This document shows positions 766-26,386 of a DNA stretch of 42,673 bases, piece by piece. A model generated the notes under the pieces. That model did not search any database and was not told where the DNA came from. It saw only the letters and a list, made by a program, of their open reading frames with translations. This stretch comes from a virus. The stretch lies in IMG/VR virus record IMGVR_UViG_3300032157_000024, positions 1 to 42,673 of that record; one strand, given 5' to 3'. Within the stretch, counting starts at the first letter, position 1. Each line of letters begins with the position of its first letter. Position numbers and translations under genes: made by a program.

Positions 766-1617
766 TTACCGCCTGCCAAGCTGCTTGTTCCTGATCTTCA
801 CGAACTCCTTGTAGTTCATCCCGTCCTTGATCTCCCCGACATCGGCAACCTTGCCGCCAGAGAGCGGCACGATGGGCGCAGGGGCCTTGGATACCTCTTT
901 GGGCTTTGCTGGCGCGGAAGCCAGTTTTTCCTCCAGCCTGCCAATCTCCCTGATCTGAGCAGTTGGCGATAACTGCATGATTCTTTGGGCTTCTTTCGGA
1001 TTGCTGCCGAGGTAATGGGCGATGTCCGGGCCGTTTTCAGCCTCGAATACAGCCCACATTGCCGCTGAATTGGGCTTGATGTCGCCTACCTTCTCGTCCC
1101 AATCCGGGTACTTGTCCTCGGCCTTGGCTACCCTTTCCTCCCAACTAGCGATCAGCCTGTCTTGGTACGCCTTCTGCTGCTCAATGCGCTGCTTGGCGGC
1201 TGATTCCTTGGTCGTGCGCTCGACCTCGTACTTGGCTTTCGCCTCAGCGTATTTCTCCGGATCAAAGCCGTACTGCTCAAGGGTAGGAGCGCCAGGGTCT
1301 TGCTGCGCCTGCTGCTGAGGACGTATCTCGGATAGCTGCTTTTCAAGGAAGTCAGCGCGGGCCTTTTCCTCCGCCGCCTTTCGGTAGGCTTTATCCAGCC
1401 TGCGCTCGTAGCGGCGCTTGCCGTGCTTTTCCTCCTGATCCTCGGCAGGCTTCGCCTCCTCCTTCGGCTTTTCCTCTACCGGCGCTGCTGGCTTGGCATC
1501 CGTTGGCGTAGCGTCTTGCTGCTGTGCAACATCGGCGGGAGGGGGAGTTGACTTTACGTTTGCGACCGGGAACGGCTTGACTGGCTCGACAGCCTGAATC
1601 TCCAGTTGTTCGGGCAT
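766..1617 (-). CDS. Scaffolding protein
   Basis: 283 aa, highly charged and helical (K/E/A/Q-rich, with a Pro/Ala-rich N-terminus). It lies immediately upstream of the coat gene, as in the P22 order portal-scaffold-coat. Confidence 0.7.
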   Translation of the reverse strand: MPEQLEIQAVEPVKPFPVANVKSTPPPADVAQQQDATPTDAKPAAPVEEKPKEEAKPAEDQEEKHGKRRYERRLDKAYRKAAEEKARADFLEKQLSEIRPQQQAQQDPGAPTLEQYGFDPEKYAEAKAKYEVERTTKESAAKQRIEQQKAYQDRLIASWEERVAKAEDKYPDWDEKVGDIKPNSAAMWAVFEAENGPDIAHYLGSNPKEAQRIMQLSPTAQIREIGRLEEKLASAPAKPKEVSKAPAPIVPLSGGKVADVGEIKDGMNYKEFVKIRNKQLGRR

Positions 1618-2171
1618 TAGTTCCTCACAACGCGGAAAGCGATGTCGAATCCGATTGTGCCCACGCTCGCAACCGTGCCTTGGACTACGCTGATGCCTGA
1701 GTTTGCGTTGACCATGAGCGGGGGCGCATCCATCATTCCGCGCCGCACAAGGTCATGCCGGAAGTATGGGCCTGCGTTCAGTTCCTCAGTAAGCACGCTT
1801 TCCCACGCGATTAGCGCACCAGCAGTAGCGCCGCCAGAAGGGGTAAGCCTTGCAGTGACTCCAGCAGGCATTACGGATGATCCCTGTCCCAACGGGCTGA
1901 TCGTAGATGCGGTCGGGTCTGTTCCGTTGAAGGTGGCAGCAGTTCCGCCGGTTCCGATTGCGGTTGTGCGTTGCAGGAACAGGTCAACAGAAACAAGACC
2001 AGTGACCGCCACCGCGCAAGATACCACCGGGATTAACCACATGACGGCGAGTTTCACGCCGCTACCGCTTGCGTTGAAAAGGTCGAAGTAGATCAGGTTC
2101 GCTCCTGGTGTCTGCTTCACAACGAACAGCTTGTAGGTCTGCGATGAATCTAACTGCGCGGTCATGTCCAT
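1617..2171 (-). CDS. Hypothetical protein (beta-rich, Gly/Thr/Ala-rich), between the sugar operon and the scaffold gene
   Basis: 184-aa ORF with a GGAG RBS (ccaaggagtagtcATG). Its TAATG junction overlaps the scaffold start. No recognisable motif. Confidence 0.6.
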   Translation of the reverse strand: MDMTAQLDSSQTYKLFVVKQTPGANLIYFDLFNASGSGVKLAVMWLIPVVSCAVAVTGLVSVDLFLQRTTAIGTGGTAATFNGTDPTASTISPLGQGSSVMPAGVTARLTPSGGATAGALIAWESVLTEELNAGPYFRHDLVRRGMMDAPPLMVNANSGISVVQGTVASVGTIGFDIAFRVVRN

Positions 2172-2194
2172 GACTACTCCTTGGTGTTGGTAGG

Positions 2195-2223
2195 CTTATA
2201 CGCCTATGAATCGAACCTGACAA
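2195..2223 (-). promoter_or_regulatory. Sigma70-like late promoter (TTGTCA-17 nt-TATAAG) with the conserved GCGTATAAGC 10-mer
   Basis: The minus strand reads TTGTCA, a 17-nt spacer, then TATAAG. It lies in the 62-nt gap between the sugar operon and the 184-aa gene. Confidence 0.5.
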
Positions 2224-2233
2224 CTTACGTGCC

Positions 2234-3370
2234 TCATAGCCTGTTCAGCCCATCGGTCAGGGCTTCTATCTTCCATCTTTCCAGTCCTGGGTAGTTACCT
2301 ACGAAAAGCCCGTATTGGTGCAGGTACTCAGCCTGCGGGAATTCCTTGTGGAAGTCGTTCCCCCACAGAGCCTTGGCATAGGGCTGGCGTAGCTGGTTGC
2401 CGCCCCCTACCGTGCCGCGCCTGATTTCCACGCCGGAATGCTCAAGGTAAGCCACCACGCGCTGCATGAGGCGCTCATCCGGTTCCGCCAGCACCAAGGG
2501 AAGCGCAAAGCTGCAAGAGCCTTCGGTGCGGTATTCGGTGCGATAGCGCGTCGGATCAAGCCTGCACAGGAAATGCAGCAGGTTGAACGTCCTAGCCTTA
2601 TTGTTTGCATCTACGCGCTTGAGTTGCGACCTGCCGATGACCGCGTTCAACTCAGTTGAGCGCACGTTGTAGGCAGGGAAGGCGAACGTGAACTCTGGAT
2701 ACAGGTCTGGATACAGTTTGGCGATTTTTTCCTTCGCTACGCCATCGGTCATTTCCCGCGTCAGGCCATGCGACCTTAGCATCCTGAGAGTTTGGTAGAA
2801 ATTGGCATCATCGGTGCATACCATGCCGCCCTCAATGGTGGACATGTGATGCCCGTAGTAGAAGCTGAAATTGCTGGCGAGGCCGAAGGTTCCTAGTTTC
2901 CTGCTGCCTCTGGTCGCCCCCATCGCCTCGCAGCAGTCCTCGACAAGAGGGGTATGCACTCCAGCATCAAACCCTAGGGCGTGCGTAACAAACTTGCACT
3001 TGGCATCGCTTGCAGACATTCCGAGGGTGCGCGGATCAACGTCCACGAAGATAGGCGTATGCCCTGCGTGCAGCACTGAGGCAATGTCTGAAATCCACGT
3101 CAGGCACGGCACGGCAATTTCAAGTTCGCCATGCAAATCGTGCAGCGCAGCCATCGTAATCAGGTTGGCGCTCGCCCCTGAATTGACGAAAACCGCGTGC
3201 TTAACTCCAAGCCACGCAGCGAATTCTTCCTCGAAAGCCGCGACCTGCTTGGATTGCGTGAGCCGTGGCATAGGCTCCGTTCCGAGGAAGTCCACGATGG
3301 CAGCAGTATCCTTCCTCGTGACACCTTCACGCATCAGCGGCCAGTCAAGGTTCACAGTTTCGCGCTTCAC
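2234..3370 (-). CDS. DegT/DnrJ/EryC1-fold enzyme resembling the PMP-dependent NDP-4-keto-6-deoxyhexose 3-dehydratases (ColD / E1-DdhC type)
   Basis: 378 aa. Motifs read by eye: VNSGASANL and FSFYYGHHMSTIEGGMVCTDD...LRSHGLTRE. A His-His pair sits where aminotransferases of this fold carry the Schiff-base Lys. GTG start in a GTGA overlap with the upstream gene. Confidence 0.7.
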   Translation of the reverse strand: MKRETVNLDWPLMREGVTRKDTAAIVDFLGTEPMPRLTQSKQVAAFEEEFAAWLGVKHAVFVNSGASANLITMAALHDLHGELEIAVPCLTWISDIASVLHAGHTPIFVDVDPRTLGMSASDAKCKFVTHALGFDAGVHTPLVEDCCEAMGATRGSRKLGTFGLASNFSFYYGHHMSTIEGGMVCTDDANFYQTLRMLRSHGLTREMTDGVAKEKIAKLYPDLYPEFTFAFPAYNVRSTELNAVIGRSQLKRVDANNKARTFNLLHFLCRLDPTRYRTEYRTEGSCSFALPLVLAEPDERLMQRVVAYLEHSGVEIRRGTVGGGNQLRQPYAKALWGNDFHKEFPQAEYLHQYGLFVGNYPGLERWKIEALTDGLNRL

Positions 3371-4284
3371 GGCACGTTCCCGTAGCGATTATTCGACAGT
3401 CCGCGATAGCCCATGAGCAGTTCGCGGATTCCGTCCTCAAGCGTCACCTTTGGCGCGTACCCTGTCGCCCTGATCTTCGCATCGGACACGATGTAGTCGC
3501 GCTGGTCGAAGTCAGTCTTGAAATCCGCTTCTGTGAAGTAGAACGGCTGCTGCCTGGTGATCGCCTCGCACAACTCAATCTTAGTCACGCTGACCGCGCC
3601 CACGTTGTAGATGTTTCCTAGCATAGATGGCGTGTTGATGGCGTGCAGGAAGGCTCTCGCAACGTCCGTAACGTGGATGCTCGTGCGCTTGTATTTCCCC
3701 TCGAATATCACGAGCGCCCTATCCCGCAGAGCGCGGAACGTAAAGTCATTGATGAGCAGGTCAAGCCTCATACGCGGCGACATCCCAAAGACGGTCGCCA
3801 AGCGAAGGCTGATCGAATTGTCACGATCCATGAGGCAATGCTCGACCTGTACCTTGTGCTTGCCGTAGGTTGAGAGCGGCGCTACTGGCGTTTCCTCCGT
3901 GCAGACATCGGCGTTCTTCCCATATACGCTCTCCGTGGTCGGCATGACGACCAACTGGCTATGCGACAGGGAATCCAGCAGAAGCAACTGCGCGTTCAGG
4001 TTCAGTTGCTCCGCAGCTATCGGGTACGCATCGCAGATCGGCGCACCGACCAATGCGGCAAGAGGAATCACGCAATCCGCAGATTTAAGGTGCGGGATTA
4101 CCTTGTCGATGTCCCGCACGTCCATACGATGCAGGCTCAGGCGCGGATTCAGGAATGACGATGCAAGCGAGTTCTCGCCATACATAAAGTGATCGAGTAC
4201 GACTACTTCATGCCCTGCGTCCAGAAGCATCGGCACAAGGATGCTTCCGATGTAACCAGCACCGCCGGTGACGGTTATGCGCAT
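3367..4284 (-). CDS. NAD(P)-dependent extended SDR (sugar epimerase/reductase family)
   Basis: 305 aa. N-terminal Rossmann motif TGGAGYIGS, TTESVYG, and a catalytic YGKHK (YxxxK) motif. Confidence 0.8.
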   Translation of the reverse strand: MRITVTGGAGYIGSILVPMLLDAGHEVVVLDHFMYGENSLASSFLNPRLSLHRMDVRDIDKVIPHLKSADCVIPLAALVGAPICDAYPIAAEQLNLNAQLLLLDSLSHSQLVVMPTTESVYGKNADVCTEETPVAPLSTYGKHKVQVEHCLMDRDNSISLRLATVFGMSPRMRLDLLINDFTFRALRDRALVIFEGKYKRTSIHVTDVARAFLHAINTPSMLGNIYNVGAVSVTKIELCEAITRQQPFYFTEADFKTDFDQRDYIVSDAKIRATGYAPKVTLEDGIRELLMGYRGLSNNRYGNVP

Positions 4285-5483
4285 TTGACGCGCCTATCCA
4301 TGTATTCTTCTGCGGTCATTCCTTCTCCCATTCTCATGTTGGCTTCGTGTTCTTCTTCCGGTAGCGCAGGTTCCATGCACTCGATTCCTCTGTCCCATCG
4401 CGCCATCTTCGGTTCGTAGGCGCAGAAGTCGTCATGCACAACGTCAACCAGTACCGGTCCTGAGTAGTTCAATGCGCTCTCTACCACGTAGTCGAACCGT
4501 TCCCACTCTCCTAGCGACATCGACTTGATGCCGTAGGCTTTGGCAATGGCGCAGAAGTTAGGCGCGGAATATCCATCAGGCCCACAGGCAAGCTCCGCCT
4601 TCTTGTTCACGCGCTGGTAAGACTTCGTATTTCCGAGGCAGCGGTTATTGATGACGAAAATCTTCACTGGCACTTCGTACTGGACAATTGTTTGTAGCTC
4701 TTGGAGATTGAGTTGCATCCCGCCATCCCCGATCAGGCAGACGATGGGCCGCGACTTGTCAGCGAACCAAGCCCCTATTGCTCCGCACATGGCGAATCCC
4801 ATCGGAGTATTGCCGTTGGAAGTGAAGTACCGCTGCCCCCACTTAGTCTTGAAGGCGTGCGCGAACATGATGACGTTGCCGCCAGTGTCTGCGGTAATCA
4901 GAGCGTTCTCAGGCATGACCTGAGATAGCTTGCGCATGAACCCGTAGTGGTGGAAGTCGCCTACCAGATGCTCTGCCTTGACCGGATCGTAGCGTTCGCA
5001 CCAGTCCTTGCACTTGAGTAGCCAGTTGGTGAAGTCCTTGTGCGGCGTGACACGCTCGGCAAGCTCACGCATGAACACGCCAGCATCGGACAGCACGTTG
5101 ACTTGCGCTGGCTGCGGCTGGTTCAGTGGATCGAGCAGCGACTCATCAATATCGACGTAGTATCTTTTTGCTCGTCGTGCAAACGTTTCAGGCAATCCCC
5201 CGGTAATTCTCCCGGATATGCGTGAGCCGATAGCAAGCAGGAGATCGCTATTTTGCAATCCATAATTTCTGCCAGGACCGCCATAAGTGCCGATTCGTCC
5301 ACCGTATGTGAGGAGGTCGGACGTTGCGACATCGAGAGCATTCCACGTTGGGAACGCAGGAATTTGTAAGGCTTTGGAGAGTGCGATGAACTCCGCTTTG
5401 TAATTGGCACAGCCGCCTCCTATCAACAAGACTGGACGCTCTGCGCGTTCCAAGTCGGCAAGGTACTGGTCTATTGCCTTCAT
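4275..5483 (-). CDS. ThDP-dependent enzyme, central plus C-terminal (PP) domains (acetolactate synthase / YerE-like), large fragment of a split enzyme
   Basis: 402 aa. Carries the ThDP-binding motif IGDGGMQLNLQELQTIVQYEVPVKIFVINN. Its ATGA overlap joins it to the upstream N-domain ORF. Confidence 0.8.
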   Translation of the reverse strand: MKAIDQYLADLERAERPVLLIGGGCANYKAEFIALSKALQIPAFPTWNALDVATSDLLTYGGRIGTYGGPGRNYGLQNSDLLLAIGSRISGRITGGLPETFARRAKRYYVDIDESLLDPLNQPQPAQVNVLSDAGVFMRELAERVTPHKDFTNWLLKCKDWCERYDPVKAEHLVGDFHHYGFMRKLSQVMPENALITADTGGNVIMFAHAFKTKWGQRYFTSNGNTPMGFAMCGAIGAWFADKSRPIVCLIGDGGMQLNLQELQTIVQYEVPVKIFVINNRCLGNTKSYQRVNKKAELACGPDGYSAPNFCAIAKAYGIKSMSLGEWERFDYVVESALNYSGPVLVDVVHDDFCAYEPKMARWDRGIECMEPALPEEEHEANMRMGEGMTAEEYMDRRVKCA

Positions 5484-6028
5484 AGCGTAGCCCTCTGCAC
5501 GTCCACTGGCAAATCGAGCAGCACAGGGCCGGGTCGTCCGGTTCCGGCAGCAATGAGCGCACGGTTAAGGTGAAAATGAACCTGCGACGGGTCTTTCACG
5601 GTCACGGCGTACTTGGTGATCGGCTTGACTATCTCGACGATGGGAGTCTCTTGGAAGCCTAGCTGCCGCAGCGCAGAGCCTTCGGGCCGCATGAACTTCG
5701 TAGAAACTTGCCCAGTGATGAACACGCACGGCACGCTGTCGTACCAGCAGTTCTGGATCGGCGTGACAAGGTTCCCGCCACCCGGCCCTGACGTGACCAC
5801 GGCGATGCCGATGCGTCCTGTTGCCTTTGCATAGCCCTCAGCCATGAAGCCAGCAGCCTGTTCGTGCTGCGCGACCACGTAATTCATCCTTCCTGGCATC
5901 GCGTCCACAAGGTCTGCCATCGCTCCCCCGTAGAGGATGAAACACGTATCGCTGATCTCTGCCAGCCTGCCGATGACGTACTCAGCGACGTTCATTGAGG
6001 AACCAATCGTAGGTTGCCGCAAGACCAT
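5480..6028 (-). CDS. ThDP-dependent enzyme, N-terminal (PYR) domain fragment
   Basis: 182 aa. MNVAEYVIGRLAEI...GGAMADLVDA...HEQAAGFMAEGYAKATGRIGIAVVTSGPGGGNLVTPI is typical of the TPP_enzyme_N domain. An alternative start lies at 5995 (MNVAEY). Confidence 0.75.
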   Translation of the reverse strand: MVLRQPTIGSSMNVAEYVIGRLAEISDTCFILYGGAMADLVDAMPGRMNYVVAQHEQAAGFMAEGYAKATGRIGIAVVTSGPGGGNLVTPIQNCWYDSVPCVFITGQVSTKFMRPEGSALRQLGFQETPIVEIVKPITKYAVTVKDPSQVHFHLNRALIAAGTGRPGPVLLDLPVDVQRATL

Positions 6029-6845
6029 CGCGCATCATCACCTTCGGCTTCCAGCCAAGCACGGTGCGCGCCTTGGTCGTGTCCACGCGGCGCACTGGAA
6101 TGGCGAGCGGCTTTGAAGGGTCATACTCAAGCCTTGGCGTGAACGCTGCGTGCCTGCAAAGCGCGTAGACAATCTCAAGCACGGACATTTCATCGCCGCT
6201 GCCTACGTTGTACGCTCCAACCGGGCCTTGCGCGGCAAGCACCATCGCCTCAACCAGATCGTCGATGTAGATGCCATCGCGCACCTGTTTTCCGTCGCCC
6301 CATATCACGATAGGGTCTTGGCGCTCGGCAACCTTCCTGACGGTCGCCTCTATGACATGGGAATGATTGGGAGAAAAGTCGTTGCCTGGTCCGTAGACGT
6401 TTGAGGGACGGACGAACGAAATTTCCAGTCCCTTTGACTTGGTGAACATCTGCGCTAGGCGATAGATGAACCTGTGCGCGTTGCCGGGGATGACGTAGGC
6501 CGGATGAAGCTCGACTTGCAGGTAGTCGTCCTCGACCATTGGCGAAGCCGAGTCTGGATAGCCTGTGGTAGAGCCTACGCAGACCACGCGGCGCACGCCT
6601 GCCTTGGCGCACGCCTCGAACACGTTCATGTGCATACGGACATTGGGCAGCACGAACGAGAGCGGGTCATCGGTCATGCGCCCCACTCCGCCAGTCTCGC
6701 CAGCGCACATATACACCGTGTCAGCATAGGGTAGCGTGCAGCCTGCTTCCAAGTCCTGATCCTGGCGAGTAAGGCCAATCCCGCCTACCCTCTTATGCAC
6801 TGCGCCGCCGATGAAACCTTTGCTGCCGAGTACGATGGTAGTCAT
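5982..6845 (-). CDS. SDR of the GDP-L-fucose synthase (Fcl / ColC-like 3,5-epimerase-4-reductase) type
   Basis: 287 aa. Motifs GSKGFIGG and PSNVYGPGNDFSPNHSHVIEATVRKV...IVIWGDGKQVRDGIYIDDLV resemble Fcl/WcaG motifs. Confidence 0.65.
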   Translation of the reverse strand: MTTIVLGSKGFIGGAVHKRVGGIGLTRQDQDLEAGCTLPYADTVYMCAGETGGVGRMTDDPLSFVLPNVRMHMNVFEACAKAGVRRVVCVGSTTGYPDSASPMVEDDYLQVELHPAYVIPGNAHRFIYRLAQMFTKSKGLEISFVRPSNVYGPGNDFSPNHSHVIEATVRKVAERQDPIVIWGDGKQVRDGIYIDDLVEAMVLAAQGPVGAYNVGSGDEMSVLEIVYALCRHAAFTPRLEYDPSKPLAIPVRRVDTTKARTVLGWKPKVMMRDGLAATYDWFLNERR

Positions 6846-6853
6846 TTTCTCAC

Positions 6854-7264
6854 TTATAGGGTGCTGACCATGATGAGCAACCGGATGGCATTTTCTTCCT
6901 GCAATGCCATGATCCGCCTGCCAATCTCGGCGTCGATCATCCTCTGGCGCTGGTCGTTCAGCAGTTCAAGGTAATGGCTCTGGTACTCGATTCCTGCGAG
7001 TTTCAGTTCTCCGGCAAGTTCTTCCAGCCTTTGCTGCTCATCAAGTCGCAAGTCCTGCGTCTGCCGTTCCGCAACCGCGTCGATGATGCTTTGCGCCTGC
7101 GGAGGGATGACACCGAACTTCTCTCTTGAGCGCCGTATGTCATCAGGATCGCGCCTGCGGCCATAGTCGAAATAGCCGCCTGTCGTAGTGGTGGTGGTTG
7201 GCGTGTTAGCGCCAAAGAACCCTCCGCCAAAGAATTCCCCGCCGAAGAAATTTCCGCTTGCCAC
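6854..7264 (-). CDS. Hypothetical protein with an N-terminal FFGG repeat, a Thr6 tract and a coiled-coil C-terminus
   Basis: 136 aa with a GTG start. Sequence begins MASGNFFGGEFFGGGFFGANTPTTTTTTGGY, followed by heptad-like charged helices. Confidence 0.55.
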   Translation of the reverse strand: MASGNFFGGEFFGGGFFGANTPTTTTTTGGYFDYGRRRDPDDIRRSREKFGVIPPQAQSIIDAVAERQTQDLRLDEQQRLEELAGELKLAGIEYQSHYLELLNDQRQRMIDAEIGRRIMALQEENAIRLLIMVSTL

Positions 7265-7650: not shown

Positions 7651-8694
7651 CTAATATCCGAGGCACATGATTTGCAGCACGTCGCTTGCTGTCCACGCAA
7701 GGGCTGCACCAGTGCTGATCGTCTGGTTCTGCACCGTGATGCTCGTGGTAGTTGTCGCCGTGATGACCGTGCGCTGGTCGCCACGGTTCGCGGCAACTGC
7801 GGTGATGTTCTCCACTTTCGCCGCCCAACCGTTTTTCGCGGCAGGCATGGTCAGGACTCCGCCAGTTGCCGTGCCGCCAGTCCCTACATTGACCGTGAAT
7901 GCTGCCGTTCCGTTGCTCGCAACAATGCTCGGATTCGTCCCGAAACCAGAGGCGATGGTAGGCGGTACGTTGTCCATGAACGTGCTTGCCCCAATCCCGA
8001 ACGGGTTGAGGTACACAGCCCCCGCATTTGAGACTCCAAGGCCGTACCCGCCGTTAGGGCGCAGGTTGATCGACCCCGACCCGTTACTGTCGATGAATAT
8101 GCTGGCTCCGCCCGTTATGGTGGAAAAGCCACCCGTAATGGTCAGGTTTCCGCCGAGCGTTCCGTTGCCGCTCTTGTCCACCTTGAAAAGAGTTGTCGCG
8201 CCAGCAGCACCACCAAGGACATTGATCGGCAGGAATCCAGCCGCGCTGGTTCCGTCCGTGAAAATGATCTCGACGCCCTTAGTGATGGACGAGTCGTTGT
8301 TCGTCCTCGTGATCGACAGCGCAGCAACGTCCGTGGTCGCCGTGCCTGCGGCCATGACAAGACCCTGGCCTGTGGCTGCGCCGAAGGTAAGGTTGGCAGA
8401 ATCGCTGAGAACTCCACTAGCCCCAACCAGCACCAAGCGGTACTGCGTGAGGCCGGAGAGCGTAAGGCCAGTGAAGGTTGGAGATAGACCGCTTACTGTG
8501 GAAGTAAGCGCCTTGGAACTATCGGTTGCAACAAGTCTGGATGCAGTCAGCCCTGAGAGCGTCAGCCCTGCAAAGGTAGGCGAATCCGCGTTCAGCAGCC
8601 CGGTGATCGTGTGGTTCTTGTCCCAATTCGTCGCGCCTGTGGCGCTGAACGTGCCGTCTGCTGCGTCTGCATGGACTACGGTAGGGTCAGCCAT
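7651..8694 (-). CDS. Fiber-like structural protein (Gly/Thr/Ala/Ser-rich, internal repeats)
   Basis: 347 aa. A repeated module is present (SPTFAGLTLSGLTASRLVATDSSKALTS / SPTFTGLTLSGLTQYRLVLVGASGVLSDS), followed by beta-helix-like G/T/N-rich sequence. The gene starts at the portal stop. Confidence 0.6.
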   Translation of the reverse strand: MADPTVVHADAADGTFSATGATNWDKNHTITGLLNADSPTFAGLTLSGLTASRLVATDSSKALTSTVSGLSPTFTGLTLSGLTQYRLVLVGASGVLSDSANLTFGAATGQGLVMAAGTATTDVAALSITRTNNDSSITKGVEIIFTDGTSAAGFLPINVLGGAAGATTLFKVDKSGNGTLGGNLTITGGFSTITGGASIFIDSNGSGSINLRPNGGYGLGVSNAGAVYLNPFGIGASTFMDNVPPTIASGFGTNPSIVASNGTAAFTVNVGTGGTATGGVLTMPAAKNGWAAKVENITAVAANRGDQRTVITATTTTSITVQNQTISTGAALAWTASDVLQIMCLGY

Positions 8695-11105
8695 TACTGC
8701 AATCTCGTAGCTACGTCAGCACCGACGATATTTCCTCCGCCGTCCTTCCTCACGTTGCCGATGAGGACGGAACGTGCGGGCGGGTTCTGTAGCACGGCGA
8801 GCGTCTGCTCCTGCAATGCAAGAGCCTGCTTTTGCAGGTTGGCAAGCTCGCCAATCGCGCCAGCTACCGCCTGCGTCATCGCCTGCATCCCCTCGACCAC
8901 CTGCGGGAGCATGGCTACGTCACGGTAGTTCGGGTCTGCGGCTAGTTTCTGATCCCTCTCGAAGGCTATTTTTTCCTTGGCAAGTCCGTGTTCGGCTTCA
9001 GCGATTTCGCGCTCCAACCTCGCCTTCTCAAGTGCGGCCGAACGCTCAAGCGCGATTTTCTTGTCCTGAACCTCTTTTTCAAGCTCCAGTGCTGCCAGTG
9101 CTTCCTCGCGCTGCACATTAATCTTCGCAAGCGCGGAGGCTTCGCCTGACTTCAATTTCATGTTCTCCTGCGCGAGTTCCTGTCCCTTCTCGTTCATCAT
9201 CTGCATCTGCTGCGTCATCTGCATGATCTTTGCCTGCGCTTTTGGCGGAACCGGAGGTTCGTCCTCATCGTCGCCTTGCAACTGCTGCGGCAGCGCACGC
9301 TTAAGACGCTCTGAGATTTCGTCAGCGATGGGCGAGTCAATCTGCTTGAAAAGCAGGTCACCTATCAGGGGAGTCAGTTGCGGGTTGCCCTTCATCGCCT
9401 CTTGCATGATGGCAACGGATTCCATGCGCTTCGTAGTGAAGCTCGGCCCCACAGTCACGGTGACATCGTAGGTGCCGACGCCAAGGTTGTAAATGCGCTT
9501 TACCTTGCCTTCCTGGGTCGGAATCTCGCGCATGGACTGCTTCTGGTTCGGGTCGATCTGGATGCGCTTGGCTTTGCCGTCAGGACCGAGGATGCGGATA
9601 ACCTGCTCCACGTCCTTGATCTTCGGGATCAGGTCAATCATGATCCTGCCGCCGTGTCGGATGGAGAGCGCAAGGTTGTCTGGAAAGTTGAAGGTCGCCG
9701 TGTCCGACTGCATTTGCAGGCTTCGGATTGCGATGCCGGACTGGTCGGATTGCGTATCGCCAACGGAAGCCTTGAACATCCCTAGGGATGTCTGGATGTC
9801 ATGCTCGATGGTGAGCAACTGGTGAATCATCGCCTGCTCCATCGGCGCTGGCATGACGCGCTCCGGCGGCGGGACGGCGTTGCCGCTCACGTCGATGGGC
9901 TTATATTGCACTACCGACAGCCGCGAACGGTTGATTTCCTTCCATTCCTGCTCGCGCCCTGCAATCTGTCCTTCGGCTGCGATGTAAGGTGTAGCCGGAG
10001 ACTGCATGATGCGCTCAGTGACAGTTGAGGCGAAGTAGTTATACATCCGAGCCGAGTCAATGGCTGGGCGAATGAGGCCCCATGTCAGTTTCTTGCCATC
10101 GACCATTTTCTGATGGCCGACCACCTTGACGATTGGGATGTATTTTCCTGCCCAATCGCGCTTATCGAGGATTTCCGTTGCGGTCAGCTTGCACCACTTG
10201 ACACTGCGCTTGAATGACTCCCTGCTATCCATGACGGTCGGGACAATCGGAACGCCAAAATCGTCCATGTTTGCCTTGGCGACCATTTCCGCGTACTCAT
10301 CCTCGAATACGTCAGTGCCATCGGATAGGTAGAGCAGTTTGGCAGGGGTGTCTTTGAAGTAGAAGTATTCGGCTTTCCTGACCGATTCCTCGCCCACCCA
10401 AAATGGACTAGAGGTGTCTCCGTCCAGCGTCCCGGTTGGGTCTTTCGCGCCTGGATGCTCGCGTCGGAAGGTGGCAAGCGGCACATCTTCCAGAACGAAC
10501 CCATACTCCGCGTCAGAGCCATCCGGCATCAGGTGCGGGCCGAGGTAGACGCTAAAACCATCGAAAATCGGCTTGACATAGATTTCCTGATTGCGGCTTT
10601 TCTGGTCTACGTAGTCGGTCGTGAACCGGAAGTAGCCTGCGCCTGCGTCAATGGCCCATTCAGCGGCGGCTTGGTAGGCGATGTCGGCGGAGGAAATGTC
10701 CTCTATATGGCGCGTGATGCCTTGGAAGATGTCTGCTGTCTCGACATCGGCTCCGCTATCGACGGGGCGCACCTTGACGGCGGGGCGGTTCTTTCGGATG
10801 TCGTTCAAAATCTGCATCCGGTACTGGCCTAGCTTGTCGATGGTGAGGCAGGGTCTAGCGCCGTTGACATCGCCCTCGCGCTGCGCCCTCACCTTCTGAT
10901 CCCACTGCTCAAGGGCGACGAACCGGATGTCTACCTTGGCTTTAGCGCGTTCCTCTGATTCGCGTGAGATTGCGTCTGCGAGGCGCGTATGGGCTTCATC
11001 GAGTATTGCCTTGTCCTCTGCTGAAACACTGGTATCTGCGGGTTGCGCTTGTCGGGACGGTTTTTTCTTGGCCATGATGTCTTTGTTGGTTCCTAGGACA
11101 TCCAC
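8694..11105 (-). CDS. Portal protein (large, P22-like, with a long C-terminal coiled-coil barrel)
   Basis: 803 aa, directly downstream of TerL. The C-terminal ~200 aa is strongly helical and charged (QMTQQMQMMNEKGQELAQENMKLK...EKEVQDKKIALERSAALEKARLEREIAEAE). Confidence 0.85.
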   Translation of the reverse strand: MDVLGTNKDIMAKKKPSRQAQPADTSVSAEDKAILDEAHTRLADAISRESEERAKAKVDIRFVALEQWDQKVRAQREGDVNGARPCLTIDKLGQYRMQILNDIRKNRPAVKVRPVDSGADVETADIFQGITRHIEDISSADIAYQAAAEWAIDAGAGYFRFTTDYVDQKSRNQEIYVKPIFDGFSVYLGPHLMPDGSDAEYGFVLEDVPLATFRREHPGAKDPTGTLDGDTSSPFWVGEESVRKAEYFYFKDTPAKLLYLSDGTDVFEDEYAEMVAKANMDDFGVPIVPTVMDSRESFKRSVKWCKLTATEILDKRDWAGKYIPIVKVVGHQKMVDGKKLTWGLIRPAIDSARMYNYFASTVTERIMQSPATPYIAAEGQIAGREQEWKEINRSRLSVVQYKPIDVSGNAVPPPERVMPAPMEQAMIHQLLTIEHDIQTSLGMFKASVGDTQSDQSGIAIRSLQMQSDTATFNFPDNLALSIRHGGRIMIDLIPKIKDVEQVIRILGPDGKAKRIQIDPNQKQSMREIPTQEGKVKRIYNLGVGTYDVTVTVGPSFTTKRMESVAIMQEAMKGNPQLTPLIGDLLFKQIDSPIADEISERLKRALPQQLQGDDEDEPPVPPKAQAKIMQMTQQMQMMNEKGQELAQENMKLKSGEASALAKINVQREEALAALELEKEVQDKKIALERSAALEKARLEREIAEAEHGLAKEKIAFERDQKLAADPNYRDVAMLPQVVEGMQAMTQAVAGAIGELANLQKQALALQEQTLAVLQNPPARSVLIGNVRKDGGGNIVGADVATRLQ

Positions 11106-12676
11106 GCAACGTTAGGGTTTTGCTCTTTGCGAGGTGGCGGGATGTATTGCGGTTTTTCCTGCTGCGGCCAGATCAGCTTCAAATCAGGCTCCGCTATACG
11201 TGCCAGAGCGTCCAAAAGGTCGTCATGCAAACCTACCGGGAATGCCAAATACTCCTCTTCTATGAACGCCTGCACTAGATCAACCGGAACCTTTTGCCAG
11301 TCCGTGACGAAGCATGTCTCCGGCAACCATATACGCCCTTGTTCGAACATTGGCAACAGGCGCTTGATCCGGTCTGCCTTGGACGTGACCCCTGCGACCT
11401 CGGTAATCGTAAACCTGTAGTTCTCGGTTTCCATCCTTGCCTGATAATGCTCTATGTCGCTCATGAGGCCATAGCGTTCGTACCTGACCTGCTTTGGCTT
11501 GTAGGTTCGGTGGGCCTCGAAAAGCCTGTCGCCGCGCTCCTTGAGGTTCAACCTGTCCCGGCATACCGGAACGCAGTAGTAGTTCCCGTCCACACCAAGA
11601 CCTACCGCCCACATCGCCGTGTAGTCCGAGCCGCGCTTTTTGCTCGATGCCGCATCGCAGCACAGATACCAGTTCAGGCGCTCGGGGATGATGCGCTTGT
11701 ATTTTCGCAGCCACTCACGCCGGAAGCCCTGCATGGCGTCGGCCTTAGGATTGAGGAGTATTTGCGCGGCGTAGGTATATGGCCCCATGTCGCGGCGCTT
11801 CTGCTCGTGCATGGATTCGGACCAGAACACGCTCTTTCCGTCCTCGGTAGCGCCCTTCCTGCCCGGATGCTCGCGCAGTTTGAGCGTGCCGCGATCAGAA
11901 ACAGTCTTGTAGGCATCGTTGAAGTGCCACCTTGTCCCTACGCCTCTTTTAACCCCAGGTGTGGTGCCGAGGTTATAGCTGCGCTCCATTTCGGTCATCA
12001 CCTTGGCGATCATTTCGGGAGTTGTAACACTCCCTGCAACCACCACGTCATCGTAGAGCAGCACGCGAAAGTGTTTCGAGGTCGGCTGTCCGTCAACCAA
12101 CCCCCACGCCTCAACCGTCGCCTCGTTCGGATTGCTTTTGCGGTTTACGATGATGCCATCGTCCTCGGACCATTTAGGTGCCTGCCTCACGTCCTCGCCC
12201 CACAAAATGTCAGGAAAAGCCGCGTGCAGGATTTTGTTCGACTCCAGTTCCCGCATGATCTGCCTGAGGAACGCCTTCGCTATCGGCCTCGTATGCGAGA
12301 AAATCCCTATCGTCACTTCCGGGTCGCACAGGATGTTCTGGATCGTCTTGCCGAACGTGATAACGCTGGACTTGAAGTGTTCCCGTCCCCACAGGTCCAA
12401 GTGCCCATCCGGGGATGCCTCGACCTCCCGACACCGCTCGAATGCGAACTGGTTCGCAACGAAATCCTTGCCTTCAGCCTTGGGCAGCATATCGACCCGC
12501 CCGCATACCCGCACCAGCAGGTAATACAAATCCGCCCGGCAGAGCATCCTAACCACCGAATTGACCGCGCCCTGCTTCCTGCCCAACTCCTCCGCCGCGT
12601 CCCAATACGCAACCGCCTTCTCAAAGGGCAGCGCACGCAGCCTCGCGGCTTCCTCTGGCGGCAGGTCAGCCATCAA
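11093..12676 (-). CDS. terL: Terminase large subunit
   Basis: 527 aa. It has an ATPase-then-nuclease architecture with a C-terminal ...FPVGLHDDLLDALARI motif typical of the TerL nuclease domain. It lies between a small DNA-binding-type ORF and the portal gene. Confidence 0.85.
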   Translation of the reverse strand: MMADLPPEEAARLRALPFEKAVAYWDAAEELGRKQGAVNSVVRMLCRADLYYLLVRVCGRVDMLPKAEGKDFVANQFAFERCREVEASPDGHLDLWGREHFKSSVITFGKTIQNILCDPEVTIGIFSHTRPIAKAFLRQIMRELESNKILHAAFPDILWGEDVRQAPKWSEDDGIIVNRKSNPNEATVEAWGLVDGQPTSKHFRVLLYDDVVVAGSVTTPEMIAKVMTEMERSYNLGTTPGVKRGVGTRWHFNDAYKTVSDRGTLKLREHPGRKGATEDGKSVFWSESMHEQKRRDMGPYTYAAQILLNPKADAMQGFRREWLRKYKRIIPERLNWYLCCDAASSKKRGSDYTAMWAVGLGVDGNYYCVPVCRDRLNLKERGDRLFEAHRTYKPKQVRYERYGLMSDIEHYQARMETENYRFTITEVAGVTSKADRIKRLLPMFEQGRIWLPETCFVTDWQKVPVDLVQAFIEEEYLAFPVGLHDDLLDALARIAEPDLKLIWPQQEKPQYIPPPRKEQNPNVAWMS

Positions 12677-13170
12677 ATCTCATCCACAGTCTCAATCTGC
12701 TCCGGCCCCTGCTCCGCCACCACCCGCTCCCTACTAGCACCAGCAGCACCGGCAGCCCCAGCCAACCTCAGCAGCTCAACCATCCCCGCCAGCAGCGCAC
12801 CCTCCTCCACCACCTTCACCTCCCTCTCCACCTTCATCCTCGGCCCATACACCTCCGGGTACGCCTTCTCCGCAAACCGAAAATTCGTGTCCACCTGCAA
12901 CTTAGCCTCCCCACTCCCAGCCGCAATCTCCAGCGCCTCCCCTACCAACATCTCGCTCTTGTACCGCTTCGCCTCCTCATACGCAGCCTTCCTATCCCCA
13001 TCACCCTTTAACCACCGCCACAACTCACTCTCAGCCCACCCCCTACTTATCGCCATTTCCTTTACCGCAACCGGACCCCTGCTCGACACCCCTGCAAGCA
13101 ACTCCCCAAGCAACCCCTCCACATCACTCCCGTCAATCTCTGCCCTCGTTGCCCTCGCCAGTGCGCCCAT
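12673..13170 (-). CDS. terS: Terminase small subunit (putative)
   Basis: 165 aa. It is the first gene of the late block and has an ATGA overlap with terL. Confidence 0.6.
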   Translation of the reverse strand: MGALARATRAEIDGSDVEGLLGELLAGVSSRGPVAVKEMAISRGWAESELWRWLKGDGDRKAAYEEAKRYKSEMLVGEALEIAAGSGEAKLQVDTNFRFAEKAYPEVYGPRMKVEREVKVVEEGALLAGMVELLRLAGAAGAAGASRERVVAEQGPEQIETVDEI

Positions 13171-13178
13171 GCAGCACG

Positions 13179-13207
13179 CTTATACGCTAAAAAATTTTCG
13201 CGCGCAA
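13179..13207 (-). promoter_or_regulatory. Sigma70-like late promoter (TTGCGC-17 nt-TATAAG) with the conserved GCGTATAAGC; predicted near-leaderless terS mRNA
   Basis: The -10 element ends 8 nt before the terS ATG at 13170. The 10-mer is identical to those at 736-745 and 2194-2203. Confidence 0.5.
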
Positions 13208-13525
13208 AACAGAACCCAACATAGGGGGGCAAAACATGCGAAAGGTATCGGTACGGGCACCCACTCGCAAAGGGGGGCGTGTCTCGGCGTTCCGAGGTCT
13301 ACCCCCCCTCCGGCCGCCTGCCTGCCACGGTCCTGGCGTGCGCGTGCTTAGGCCCACGCCTGCCCATGCCTAGCGCAGTGTTGCGGTCGGGAGACAGGCT
13401 AGCTGGATGCGTGAGTTTACATAATCACATACTGCGCAATGCTTGACCCGGCAGCGCAGGTATCGGCCTGCAATACGTTGCCAGCACGCAACACTAAGCC
13501 TACGTTAGCGAACACTCTCATGCAA

Positions 13526-16213: not shown

Positions 16214-16422
16214 CTACCAGGCGCATCTACGTCTACACGCTGGCTATCGAGCTATCCGGCGAGCGCACGGACGACGATGCGCCTGAGCGCATTGCACGCG
16301 AGTTGATGGCAGCGATCCCTGCGCAACTGGACGGGGCTACGCTGCTGGCAGCAGAGGCTACTTATCGGCGCCGTATCGTGGCACAACAGCGTCCGCGAGG
16401 CGTAGGCCGAGGATCACTTTAA
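16210..16422 (+). CDS. Hypothetical protein (about 70 aa, putative TTG start)
   Basis: GGAGAG lies 5 nt upstream of a TTG that overlaps the preceding TGA. The 3' end converges on and overlaps the primase stop. Weak call. Confidence 0.3.
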   Translation: MTTRRIYVYTLAIELSGERTDDDAPERIARELMAAIPAQLDGATLLAAEATYRRRIVAQQRPRGVGRGSL

Positions 16423-18373
16423 CGCCTGACTTCATCACTTGGTAGCCGCGCTCTTTCAGCTTGGTGGTAAAGTTCTTCTGCGATAGCACGTACTCCCCTG
16501 CACCCTCAGCCCATGAGCGGTAGTTAGCGTATAGGTCGCTGGACTTAGCGCGTGCGTTCTGGTCTACCACTGCGTTCGCTTCGATCCATTCGGCTATCAC
16601 GTCCTCGCCTTCGAGGTAGTTTTCCACCGCTTCCATTACCTGCTCTGGCTTGCCTAGCCCCGCATCGCGCCACGCGAGGAACCCATCCATGCACCATTGC
16701 AGGATTTGCGGGTACTCGGTGCGCAGCTTCGCATCGAGATCACGGTCCATATCTTCCTCTGCGACCGGATTGGCGAATTCCAAGATATGCAGGCGGCGGC
16801 GCATCGCTTCGTCTACGTTGCGCAGGCCTGGTATATGGTTCGCGGCCATGAGAATCTTGCCTAACTGGAATTCGAAGCTATTTTCCCGCAGCATCCTCGC
16901 CCGCACAATGTCGCGCCCTGTTAGCTGCTTGATGCGTGCTTCACTCCATCGCTTATTCGAGTCTGTCTCGCTTGCGACGATCATGCGGGCACCTGCAAGG
17001 CTCGCCAATTCCTCGCTATGTCGCTCCATGCGAGATTCCGTGAATACGTCCATGCTCGCCGTGACCGCATAGGTTCCCATCATTTCGCGTAGCGCCGATA
17101 TGAACTTGCTCTTACCGCGCCGCGCAGGGCCAAAGCAAAAAAGCAGTGCTTCCTCGCTATTGTCCCCGGACAGGAAATACCCGCACCAGCGTTGCATGTA
17201 GGCGATCAGGCTATCGTCGCCCTTGCAAATGTGCTGGATGAACTTGAGCCATTGCACTGGCTCGCCACGCTCAGGGGCGACCGCTGTCTGTCGCGTGATG
17301 TAATGCTCTCTTTCAGCCGCGATCACCTTGCCAAGCTTCAGGTCTACCACGCCACCTGGCACGCCAAGCAAGTAGGGGTCAGCGTTGAACTGTGATTCCT
17401 CTGCCGATATGCGCCTGTCGGATGACGTGTTATCGCGCATGTTCCACCAAAACCGCTTGGAACCGATCTTGCGCCTGCCCTCCGGGGTCAGGCTTGCGGC
17501 ATCCGGCCACGATAGCGCCGTGCGGCAGAACTCTATCGAGCGCCGGTCAACCTCTTTTTTGGCATCCGGCTTCCAGTAGCTCCCATCCCATACGAGCCAG
17601 AGATTGCGCGCTGCAACATAGCGCAGGTCATCACATTGCGATGCAGCAAATTCCATCGCCACGTGATCCTCGGACATTTCCGCTGGCAGCGGCTCATCGT
17701 CCGGGTCAGGCTTGCGGGCTGCATTGCCATCGGTTCCGACGATCCCGCCCATGATTGACCTCAGCCGTGGCTTCCTCTTGCCGCCAGGACGCGATTTGGC
17801 GGCCTCTGGCTCATTTTCGTAGGCCGATAATGGTATTTGATGGTCAGGCGGCTGCGACGTTTCTAGCGCATCCTGCGCAATGCTGACATTTCTGTCAGAT
17901 TCGTCAGGTTCGCCACCCTCCGGTGGTGGAGGAGGCACCGGCTCTGCGGCAACCGGCGGGGTCGCCGTAGCTGCTACCGGAGGGGGCGAATGTGGTGCGG
18001 CGGGGGCAGCAGAGTGGGATTCGAACCCACGACCCTCGTCAGCGGAAGTTATAGGCTTCCGGTCAGATGCTCTATCCAGCTGCGCTATCTGCTGTCCCGC
18101 CGCATAGTCTACGGCATGGGCTTTGACCCATGCCTTTATCTCTGTGTCCGTTGCGCCTTCTGGCCAAGGCTCTGGCAGGTAGCGCAGCTTGCCAGCATAC
18201 CCCACCGCATAGGCCGCTATCTCCCCGTCGAGCGCGAATACCTTGCGCCCTTCCAAGCCCTCCCACTCGCCATTGGCAAGCCTTGCTTCGAGCGCCGGAA
18301 ATATCCGCGCCATGAGCGAAAGCTGCTCCTGCGAGTGGCAGATGACTAGCTGCCGCGCCTCCCCGCTTGCCAC
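16358..18373 (-). CDS. Primase/helicase (P4/D5 family: degenerate Toprim-like N-domain, Pro-rich linker, D5_N plus SF3 NTPase)
   Basis: 671-aa open frame. The C-terminal part carries a Walker A motif (FGPARRGKSKF), ...MIVASETD..., and RRRLHILEF, typical of phage/plasmid P4-family primases. A possible internal start lies at 17752 (GAGG RBS). The frame contains a tRNA-like sequence at 18006-18094. Confidence 0.8.
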   Translation of the reverse strand: MASGEARQLVICHSQEQLSLMARIFPALEARLANGEWEGLEGRKVFALDGEIAAYAVGYAGKLRYLPEPWPEGATDTEIKAWVKAHAVDYAAGQQIAQLDRASDRKPITSADEGRGFESHSAAPAAPHSPPPVAATATPPVAAEPVPPPPPEGGEPDESDRNVSIAQDALETSQPPDHQIPLSAYENEPEAAKSRPGGKRKPRLRSIMGGIVGTDGNAARKPDPDDEPLPAEMSEDHVAMEFAASQCDDLRYVAARNLWLVWDGSYWKPDAKKEVDRRSIEFCRTALSWPDAASLTPEGRRKIGSKRFWWNMRDNTSSDRRISAEESQFNADPYLLGVPGGVVDLKLGKVIAAEREHYITRQTAVAPERGEPVQWLKFIQHICKGDDSLIAYMQRWCGYFLSGDNSEEALLFCFGPARRGKSKFISALREMMGTYAVTASMDVFTESRMERHSEELASLAGARMIVASETDSNKRWSEARIKQLTGRDIVRARMLRENSFEFQLGKILMAANHIPGLRNVDEAMRRRLHILEFANPVAEEDMDRDLDAKLRTEYPQILQWCMDGFLAWRDAGLGKPEQVMEAVENYLEGEDVIAEWIEANAVVDQNARAKSSDLYANYRSWAEGAGEYVLSQKNFTTKLKERGYQVMKSGVKVILGLRLADAVVPRYGADK
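18006..18094 (-). other. tRNA-derived element (89 nt) embedded in frame in the primase ORF
   Basis: The minus strand reads CAGCAGA-TA-GCGC-AGCTGGATA-GAGC-A-TCTGAC-CGGAAG-CCTATAA-CTTCCG-CTGACGAGGGTC-GTGGG-TTCGAAT-CCCAC-TCTGCTG-C. This gives a perfect 7-bp acceptor stem, a canonical T-arm and a near-canonical D-arm. The anticodon domain is aberrant: a 6-bp stem with loop CCUAUAA, flanked by CTGAC direct repeats. Confidence 0.6.
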
Positions 18374-24752: not shown

Positions 24753-24844
24753 CCGGTGGTAGCTCAGTTAGGAGGCCGTCAGAAGCCCTAGAGAGCACCG
24801 GATTCGTAATCCGGAGGTCGGGGGTTCAAATCCCTCCCGCCGGG
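24753..24844 (+). tRNA. tRNA-Thr(CGU) with a ~19-nt insertion in the D-loop
   Basis: Acceptor stem CCGGTGG/CCGCCGG. Anticodon arm CCGGA-TTCGTAA-TCCGG (anticodon CGT). Variable loop AGGTC. T-arm GGGGG-TTCAAAT-CCCTC. The D-arm is GCTC...GAGC but with a 27-nt loop (agttaggaggccgtcagaagccctaga). Confidence 0.7.
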
Positions 24845-24853
24845 CCGTACTTC

Positions 24854-25247: not shown

Positions 25248-25324
25248 GTTCTAACGTGGCGGGTAGTGCTGGCCCACTGGCCGGTGGATACAACCAGCAC
25301 TACCCTGTCCCACGACTTGCAAGT

Positions 25325-26287: not shown

Positions 26288-26288
26288 G

Positions 26289-26377
26289 TGCAAGCATCCT
26301 TTCCTAAAATAATGCTTGCATCCTACCCCCGTCCGGCGCACAATGCAAGCATCGATTCTGAGCCACATGCTTGCAGG
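26289..26377. promoter_or_regulatory. Array of four ATGC(A/T)(A/T)GCAT palindromic sites in a divergent intergenic region
   Basis: TGCAAGCATCC (26289), ATGCTTGCATCC (26312), ATGCAAGCATCG (26343) and ATGCTTGCAGG (26367), lying between the P63C start and the transposase start. Confidence 0.65.
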
Positions 26378-26386
26378 GAGCCTCAA

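Follow-up and report, generated by a model that had tools for sequence, protein, structure and literature searches.

Among the closest described systems to the one treated here is the yersiniose A pathway of Yersinia pseudotuberculosis (DdhA-D, YerE, YerF), in which a 3-dehydratase dependent on pyridoxamine 5'-phosphate (PMP) yields a 3-deoxy-4-keto nucleotide sugar and a thiamine diphosphate (ThDP) enzyme resembling acetohydroxyacid synthase (AHAS) adds an acyl branch taken from a 2-oxo acid. Both elements recur in the window, by which we mean the whole stretch of 42,673 nucleotides (nt) of IMG/VR virus record IMGVR_UViG_3300032157_000024, to whose positions all coordinates of the phage refer. 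It comes from an uncultured, circular, P22-like podophage, and five overlapping open reading frames in it (ORF1 to ORF5) are predicted to form a cassette that tailors a nucleotide sugar. The two phage subunits of the ThDP enzyme score best against YerE-like structures. The phage module would nevertheless differ from the yersiniose pathway in several respects: its carrier is probably guanosine diphosphate (GDP), not cytidine diphosphate (CDP); its dehydratase would be of the ColD type, with no iron-sulfur cluster and no E3, rather than of the E1/E3 type; its 4-keto group probably comes from a C4-dehydrogenase instead of a 4,6-dehydratase, and C6 may keep its hydroxyl; its ThDP enzyme is made of two polypeptides; and its genes are viral.

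Two further sugar pathways come close in other ways. In capsular heptose modification of Campylobacter jejuni (Cj1427, the HS:5 C3-dehydratase, epimerases, and C4-reductases), the likeness lies in ORF2, which is about 50% identical to the solved structure 6vo6 (presumably Cj1427), and in related cellular clusters that carry HddA/HddC/GmhB-like genes. The C. jejuni route, however, lacks a ThDP branching step and is completed by cupin epimerases and canonical C4-reductases, whereas the phage lacks genes for GDP-heptose synthesis, and its ORF5 is nearer to Fcl than to the C. jejuni reductases. With the colitose pathway (ColD/WbdK, ColC), the phage shares the His base of ColD in ORF1 and, in ORF5, the Fcl/ColC branch of the short-chain dehydrogenases/reductases (SDRs). 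Unlike that pathway, it has no Tyr, Lys, or Cys in ORF5 for ColC chemistry, adds a ThDP brancher and a C4-dehydrogenase-like SDR, and encodes no Gmd.

Phages are known to carry glycosyltransferase genes next to capsid genes (PMC11256854). The window shares this trait with mycobacteriophage capsid and tail-tube glycosyltransferases, prophage TarP, and the sugar genes of cyanophages and giant viruses, and its own glycosyltransferase, GT300, has the GT-A fold in common with phage-borne TarP. To our knowledge, these systems take ordinary host sugar nucleotides or make known sugars, and Freeman et al. 2023 reportedly also described glycosyltransferase genes beside capsid genes in phages. The window phage, in contrast, would bring a multistep route to a branched rare sugar, and GT300 belongs to no described glycosyltransferase family. 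A literature search turned up no account of YerE-like or ColD-like enzymes in phages, in line with the original prediction, which knew of no such pathway in a phage capsid module; a 2025 review of YerE-type ThDP enzymes is silent on phages and counts viruses as unexplored territory. The pieces already known are the ColD-type 3-dehydratase, Cj1427-type C4 oxidation, and YerE-type branching; what is new is how they are combined, together with a brancher in two parts, an Fcl-like partner with an altered active site, a GT-A family, and a virus as the carrier.

Predicted functions of the five cassette genes

The cassette reads as follows, in the order of the minus strand (lengths in amino acids [aa]).

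5982-6845, minus strand: ORF5, 287 aa (PF01370, 3.4e-36)
5480-6028, minus strand: ORF4, 182 aa (PF02776, 2.6e-31)
4275-5483, minus strand: ORF3, 402 aa (PF00205, 4e-21, and PF02775, 2e-34)
3367-4284, minus strand: ORF2, 305 aa (PF01370, 6.8e-33)
2234-3370, minus strand: ORF1, 378 aa (PF01041, 1.6e-48)

The original prediction of five overlapping minus-strand ORFs between the portal and the scaffold and coat genes holds in its coordinates, Pfam matches, and flanks: profile searches with PF01041, PF01370, and PF02776/PF00205/PF02775 placed every ORF well above threshold, and the motifs that had been quoted (FSFYYGHHMSTIEGG, GGAGYIGS, and YGKHK) are all present. Neighboring genes overlap by 47 nt (ORF5/ORF4), 4 nt (ORF4/ORF3, ATGA), 10 nt (ORF3/ORF2), and 4 nt (ORF2/ORF1, GTGA), and the junctions are predicted to be translationally coupled.

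ORF2 would oxidize a GDP-manno sugar at C4 with nicotinamide adenine dinucleotide (NAD), as a C4-dehydrogenase of the Cj1427 type. It is indeed an extended SDR, with GxxGxxG (GGAGYIGS) and YxxxK (YGKHK), but the generic finishing SDR that had been proposed does not fit a full-length match of 1.6e-84 to PDB entries 6vo6/6vo8 (residues 2-303, about 50% identity), the next solved structure standing at 1e-19. The bit score between ORF2 and 6vo6 is about that of its seventh-best cluster, with about six scoring higher among 1.84 billion representatives. Entries 6vo6/6vo8 presumably represent Cj1427 of C. jejuni. Cj1427 is an NAD-dependent C4-dehydrogenase of GDP-heptose. Oxidation of GDP-heptose at C4 by this enzyme, combined in vitro with a ColD-like C3-dehydratase, gives GDP-3-deoxy-4-keto-heptose (PMC10680097). 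In the mechanism described there for the enzyme, NADH stays tightly bound and is recycled by alpha-ketoglutarate (ping-pong). With ORF2 as a C4-dehydrogenase, the module probably makes its own 4-keto sugar from a GDP-manno sugar, so that no 4,6-dehydratase would be needed and the product need not be 6-deoxy. Among the other window ORFs of at least 110 aa that were scanned, there is neither a nucleotidyltransferase nor a 4,6-dehydratase, as originally predicted, nor an E3-type reductase.

ORF1 is predicted to be a ColD-type GDP-4-keto-sugar 3-dehydratase, dependent on pyridoxal 5'-phosphate (PLP) or PMP, and not an aminotransferase. A DegT/DnrJ/EryC1 (fold type I) domain covers the whole protein (PF01041, as listed above; phrog_3139, 1.4e-60), and its best solved relative is ColD (2gms, 1.3e-42, 149.5 bits), ahead of perosamine synthase (2.5e-25, 92.5 bits) and E1 (3bcx, 3.4e-23, 85.6 bits). 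The segment FSFYYGHHMSTIEGG aligns with FSSFYSHHIATMEGG of ColD, its GHH lying opposite S187-H188-H189, where the ColD variant entries H188N and S187N/H188K were used to mark the catalytic position; ORF1 has His at the ColD His188 position in place of the Schiff-base Lys. The earlier choice of a ColD/E1-like dehydratase over an aminotransferase is thereby upheld. ORF1 lies below every NCBIfam cutoff and is the equivalog of no named enzyme, and scans of the window found no ferredoxin-reductase-like ORF to act as an E3 partner. Its closest relative, 60% identical and also of the His type, is found in an unrelated 40-kb phage (IMGVR_UViG_3300049215_000243, 4609-9282; locus L002). There, it stands beside a 644-aa B12-binding radical S-adenosylmethionine (SAM) enzyme and a Glyco_trans_1_2 protein, without a ThDP gene, and L002 is a different viral deoxysugar module.

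ORF4 and ORF3 together are predicted to be a genuinely split YerE-like ThDP carboligase with a keto sugar as the acceptor. ORF4 is the N-terminal PYR domain, with the catalytic Glu in HEQAAG (translation may in fact start at the internal Met12, the first residue of the Pfam match), and ORF3 comprises the middle and C-terminal PP domains, with the GDG...NN ThDP/Mg motif (IGDGG...INN); the single polypeptide of ~580 aa typical of YerE-like enzymes is broken after the PYR domain, at the ATGA overlap. The best solved match is 5ahk for ORF4 (2.3e-35), presumably PpYerE, and 8rph for ORF3 (3.8e-50), confirmed as JanthE, a YerE-like lyase. A family profile built from 32 fused members scores 5ahk at 416.7 bits and 8rph at 415.8 bits versus 370.6 bits for the best AHAS, a gap of ~45 bits. 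The 120 closest homologues divide into 81 with the middle and PP domains only and 39 fused proteins, GDG being present in every one; a frameshift artefact behind the split is ruled out by its recurrence in those 81. The original prediction of a split YerE-like enzyme is borne out on both counts. YerE-like enzymes accept 2-oxo acids longer than pyruvate.

ORF5 does belong to the Fcl/ColC branch of the SDRs, as proposed, but not as a standard epimerase-reductase. Its best solved relatives are GDP-L-fucose synthases (7ll6, 9e-39; Escherichia coli 1e6u, 2e-34), it carries the motifs GSTTGYP and HPAYVIPGNAHRF, and it reaches 153 bits versus the NCBIfam Fcl cutoff of 500. Of the Fcl triad S107/Y136/K140, only the Ser is kept, Pro120 and His124 of ORF5 standing at the positions of Tyr136 and Lys140; in the epimerization pair, an invariant Thr94 takes the place of Fcl Cys109, and the equivalent of His179 is retained (SHV). 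None of the 120 closest ORF5 homologues has YxxxK at this site and 104 share HPxYxxxGxxxRF, with His114, Tyr117, Pro120, Gly121, and Arg125 invariant in the family; the true Fcl-like genes of cellular loci retain GSSC and YAVAK. A plain Fcl/ColC enzyme is ruled out by this active-site alignment (no YxxxK, no Cys base), and ORF5 is probably an Fcl-derived epimerase and/or reductase of the branch carbonyl. Loss of the Fcl machinery for C4 reduction would be sensible here, because reduction at C4 would destroy the acceptor ketone.

Relatives of the cassette in viruses and cells

The ThDP clade counts 2,635 proteins at E<=1e-20. An IMG/VR scan with ORF3 as the single query gave no match, whereas a scan with the family alignment succeeded and found the family in 49 IMG/VR viral contigs and 80 cellular loci. 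In every locus, the ORFs were called and then sorted by comparison with the window proteins and the cluster neighbors.

The window's own clade, group A (50 to 71% identity), comprises about a dozen podophage contigs of 35 to 45 kb. Their core cassette consists of an ORF5-like gene, the ThDP gene or genes (split or fused), and an ORF2-like gene; the ORF5-type SDR is almost confined to this group, and only the window adds a ColD-like gene. The original prediction had the module embedded in the head-morphogenesis operon, but it is not special to it, since in many phages the core cassette lies at other genome positions: before the terminase in loci L012 and L144, between a SU10-type capsid gene and the adaptor in L014, and, in L145 to L147, as the last part of the early operon, pointing toward the tail genes. 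Some of these carry extra genes, a split transketolase in L014 (8442-9813) and an E1_dh-like protein, a methyltransferase, and a short SDR in L145 to L147 (L145, 3961-6461; L146, 6454-9125). In antibiotic pathways, sugar branching is known or has been proposed for both the transketolase and the E1_dh-type ThDP classes, and a second ThDP enzyme beside the YerE-like one hints at more elaborate viral sugars. Group B consists of viral contigs of 20 to 186 kb with ORF2-like, B12-radical SAM, ThDP, and ColD-like genes, often together with an HddA-like kinase. One record found in the scan, IMG/VR 2716884398_000001 (130,604 bp; L020/L101), is the same sequence as QCKN01000003.1, which is filed under a Prochlorococcus single-cell genome; this leaves two explanations, a misfiled record or a virus caught inside the cell that it had infected.

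Most of the cellular loci come from Nitrospira, the rest from Pelagibacteraceae single-cell genomes, candidate phyla radiation (CPR) bacteria, DPANN archaea, and further groups. These GDP-heptose-type clusters share with the phage the same YerE-like clade (45 to 50% identity), a His-type DegT protein, and an ORF2-like SDR. They differ in adding a kinase, a guanylyltransferase, B12-radical SAM enzymes, an aminotransferase, and GT9, whereas the phage keeps only the tailoring core, plus the ORF5-type SDR. The gene order in Nitrospira defluvii is DegT(His), ORF2-like, GHMP kinase, nucleotidyltransferase, aminotransferase, radical SAM, ThDP, and radical SAM, followed further on by GT9, and the cluster is without any 4,6-dehydratase. 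Its kinase best matches HddA and its transferase HddC (or mannose-1-phosphate guanylyltransferase), both below cutoff; in Pelagibacter, HddC is fused to GmhB, and an HddA-like kinase is encoded as well. In "Candidatus Nitrospira defluvii" (FP929003.1, 2267089-2288300; L081) and ~40 other Nitrospira loci, the cluster is conserved and apparently uncharacterized, and its product is probably a branched sugar derived from heptose and heavily modified.

Among DegT-fold neighbors of the ThDP family, 102 of 107 have His at the Lys position. Where a ThDP gene and a ColD-like gene occur together, 64 loci have only an ORF2-like gene, 12 only a 4,6-dehydratase-like gene, 8 both, and 9 neither, counts that are inflated by closely related Nitrospira genomes and are not independent. 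ORF2-like SDRs and 4,6-dehydratases thus look like alternative suppliers of the 4-keto group, because a ColD-type enzyme needs a 4-keto substrate. This pattern suggests that, ahead of 3-deoxygenation and C4 branching, ORF2-like C4-dehydrogenases may quite generally take the place of 4,6-dehydratases.

Proposed pathway, transferase, and acceptor

The five genes would make up a late-expressed, phage-borne module that starts from a host GDP-manno sugar, either GDP-mannose or GDP-heptose. ORF2 would oxidize C4 to give a GDP-4-keto sugar, from which ORF1, with PLP/PMP, its His base, and glutamate, would strip the 3-hydroxyl to leave a GDP-3-deoxy-4-keto sugar. ORF4 and ORF3 would then decarboxylate pyruvate (the default donor) or another 2-oxo acid and join the acyl carbanion to the C4 ketone, producing a tertiary alcohol with a carbon branch. 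ORF5 would either epimerize next to the keto group before branching or reduce the branch carbonyl after it. The product, a GDP-linked 3-deoxy-4-C-branched higher sugar, would be passed to GT300 for attachment to a virion protein (favored) or a host envelope glycan. The minimal group A cassette would oxidize, branch, and finish, the host supplying only the primary sugar nucleotide. We hold this whole GDP-manno route, from ORF2 to ORF5 and on to transfer by GT300, with moderate confidence. The folds, catalytic motifs, nearest characterized relatives, and gene co-occurrence are observed; from them we infer which sugar the route starts from, in what order the steps run, which acid serves as the donor, what ORF5 does, and what receives the sugar. 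GDP is favored over the CDP of the yersiniose pathway because the nearest characterized relatives of ORF1, ORF2, and ORF5 all act on GDP sugars of the manno type. The predicted biochemistry is well grounded, if unproven.

Besides the dependence among the locus counts, several points weigh against this route. YerE itself takes a CDP sugar, and the supply of GDP-mannose or GDP-heptose in the host is an assumption. The equation of 6vo6 with Cj1427 is presumptive, and an identity of 50% settles neither the substrate nor the direction of ORF2, which could instead be a YerF-type branch reductase. ORF5, with the invariant Tyr117 and Arg125 near the old site, may still be a reductase. The HddA/HddC-like matches in the cellular clusters are far below the NCBIfam cutoffs, and nothing ties the sugar to any particular acceptor.

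The original prediction had drawn the route differently. A host nucleoside diphosphate (NDP)-4-keto-6-deoxyhexose, made by a host 4,6-dehydratase, would be diverted to a colitose- or yersiniose-like 3,6-dideoxy sugar, with ORF1 giving the 3,6-dideoxy-4-keto sugar, the ThDP enzyme adding a two-carbon branch, a YerF-like ORF2 reducing the acetyl group, and ORF5 acting as a ColC/Fcl-type enzyme. ColD and Fcl, the nearest characterized relatives of ORF1 and ORF5, both use GDP-4-keto-6-deoxymannose; ORF2-like SDRs stand beside the ThDP gene in most loci, as an obligate partner would, and share 8 loci with 4,6-dehydratase-like genes. The idea also retains some probability because the reductase coupled to YerE in the yersiniose pathway, of the YerF type, is still uncharacterized (PMC4753412). 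We nevertheless find it unlikely. ORF2 is far nearer to 6vo6 (presumably Cj1427) than to any reductase (1e-19 or weaker), and the 64 loci that pair ColD-like and ORF2-like genes have no other supplier of the 4-keto group. Without YxxxK and the Cys base, ColC-type reduction by ORF5 is improbable, and it would remove the very ketone that the ThDP enzyme uses. The match of ORF2 to 6vo6 and the near exclusivity of ORF2-like genes and 4,6-dehydratases cast doubt on the "3,6-dideoxy" product and on any dependence on a host NDP-4-keto-6-deoxyhexose.

The candidate transferase and acceptor of the GDP-manno route lie among the following genes, given in minus-strand order.

12673-13170, minus strand: small terminase
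11093-12676, minus strand: large terminase
8694-11105, minus strand: P22-type portal (PF16510, 7.7e-151)
7651-8694, minus strand: p347, Ser/Thr/Gly/Ala-rich, directly after the portal
between p347 and p136, minus strand: small ORFs
6854-7264, minus strand: p136
2234-6845, minus strand: the cassette, ORF5 to ORF1
1617-2171, minus strand: p184, between cassette and scaffold gene, no Pfam or PHROG match, ending 1 nt into the scaffold start
766-1617, minus strand: scaffold (phrog_8865, 5.7e-41)
across the origin (window ends), minus strand: P22-type coat
40266-41168, minus strand: GT300, between coat and adaptor
beyond GT300 in minus-strand order: adaptor and tail genes

The glycosyltransferase that had been called at 40266-41168 is supported as a GT-A fold by structure prediction. 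GT300 had no match in Pfam and a weak one in PHROG (phrog_14945 "glycosyltransferase," 2e-7), and its AlphaFold2 model (predicted local distance difference test score of 91, predicted template modeling [TM] score of 0.86) retrieved AvpGT, TarS, TarP, SpsA, and WrtF from the PDB with Foldseek (E of 2.5e-8 to 1e-6, TM of ~0.5), AvpGT being the best fold match. The family has ~100 metagenomic members, with the acidic residues D40, D43, D91, and D101 invariant. GT300 would be a soluble GT-A-fold protein of a new family outside the described glycosyltransferase sequence families. With a hidden Markov model of the family, divergent relatives turn up next to the cassette in L014, L015, L016/L144, L039, L056, and several group B viral loci, and closer members apparently share contigs with cassette genes (by size match, 41,223 and 25,427 bp). 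GT300 is a candidate for the dedicated transferase of the cassette product.

As to the acceptor, p347, which is 52% Ser/Thr/Gly/Ala, is predicted to be beta-rich, and matched nothing in Pfam and PHROG, may be a virion fiber or decoration and, speculatively, the target. We lean toward virion glycosylation because all components lie in the late structural operon and the fiber-like, Ser/Thr-rich p347 adjoins; we rank remodeling of the host envelope next, and DNA and small molecules are less probable as targets. The same sugar might serve another use, placed on phage DNA or on a small molecule, or made only to drain the host GDP-sugar pool and so block receptor or capsule synthesis. GT300 is soluble, its best fold match AvpGT was crystallized with the nucleoside Ara-A, the cassette adjoins early or replication genes in other phages, and the acceptor cannot be named from sequence. 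Such a use is nonetheless improbable, as the window ORFs scanned include no hydroxymethylase, thymidylate-synthase-like, or other DNA-hypermodification gene, a route of four or five steps is needlessly elaborate for pool depletion, and the genes sit in the late structural operon of the window phage.

Genome setting and meaning of the cassette

The window ends, 1-127 and 42547-42673, are an exact 127-nt direct repeat inside the P22-type coat gene, which is broken across them; the contig is thus circular, with a true length of 42,546 bp. In a collection of 50,697 phage records, neither the cassette nor the portal/terminase region had a megablast match, tblastn with ORF3 gave matches of <=30% identity only (mostly host contamination in "phage" records), and tblastn with a 6vo6-derived sequence gave nothing above 37%, indicating that the phage has no cultured relative in that collection. 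Its portal is <=39% identical to the portals of environmental podophages.

Could the cassette be inert cargo or an artefact, that is, host DNA misjoined into a phage contig, or decaying genes? The phage is known from metagenomes only, and a split enzyme can signal a frameshift, but we consider this very improbable. The cassette is not an assembly chimera, since its GC content (56.8%, versus 57.6% in the rest of the genome) and its GC content at third codon positions match the genome and the identical arrangement is found in an independently assembled Logan contig. Moreover, junctions overlap by 4 nt, the split is common to most of the closest homologues, all catalytic motifs are intact, and the cassette is conserved across many distinct phages. 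With intact motifs, coupled junctions, and genome-like composition, the genes look intact and selected. Hardly credible at all is an ordinary acetolactate synthase, auxiliary to branched-chain amino acid synthesis and unrelated to the sugar genes: the top NCBIfam names are those of AHAS large subunits and JGI labels the homologues likewise, but ORF3 (197 bits) and ORF4 (151 bits) are far below the AHAS equivalog cutoff of 538 bits, the family profile prefers YerE-like enzymes, results that together rule out AHAS and answer the original question of whether the ThDP ORFs group with ordinary acetolactate synthases, no gene for the small regulatory AHAS subunit adjoins them (both neighbors are SDRs), and in more than 100 loci the ThDP gene stands in close linkage with genes for His-type DegT proteins and SDRs.

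Elsewhere in the window, a 688-aa ORF (25256-27322, plus strand) has IS1595-type zinc ribbon and DDE transposase domains in its C-terminal half (2.2e-30) and no match in its N-terminal ~380 aa; phage L145, which bears the cassette too, has an IS1595-like gene of 306 aa (2193-3113). The window ORFs scanned include no integrase, and the 688-aa protein might therefore be a domesticated transposase. The early region holds a tRNA-Thr(CGU) gene (24776-24846, plus strand), and ARAGORN called a second tRNA, with a four-base anticodon (18004-18094, minus strand), inside the D5-type primase gene (16358-18373), probably a false positive. Long antisense ORFs of 685 aa opposite the large terminase (11294-13351, plus strand) and 347 aa opposite p347 (7667-8710) are probably chance open frames in GC-rich DNA.

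YerE-type enzymes are prized biocatalysts for chiral tertiary alcohols and have so far come from bacterial surface-glycan clusters only. The phage clade offers many compact, naturally split YerE-like variants with minimal partners, so that reconstitution should be easy, and it links phage genes to a large uncharacterized group of GDP-heptose-type clusters in Nitrospira, Pelagibacter, CPR bacteria, and DPANN archaea. As a more tentative and wider proposal, podophages of Gram-negative hosts may share a widespread, unrecognized form of viral glycosylation, in which a portable core of three enzymes, namely a C4-dehydrogenase, a YerE-like brancher in split form, and an Fcl-like SDR with a remodeled active site (joined here by a 3-dehydratase), would turn GDP-mannose or GDP-heptose into a virus-specific branched higher sugar and a new GT-A family would attach it to the capsid or head fibers. 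If this is true, the virion displays a sugar that its host does not make. That a mobile, conserved rare-sugar cassette with its own GT-A family lies in late or structural regions suggests a modification, not yet described, of the virion or of the infected cell's surface, which would bear on receptor masking, evasion of immunity or defense, and particle stability.

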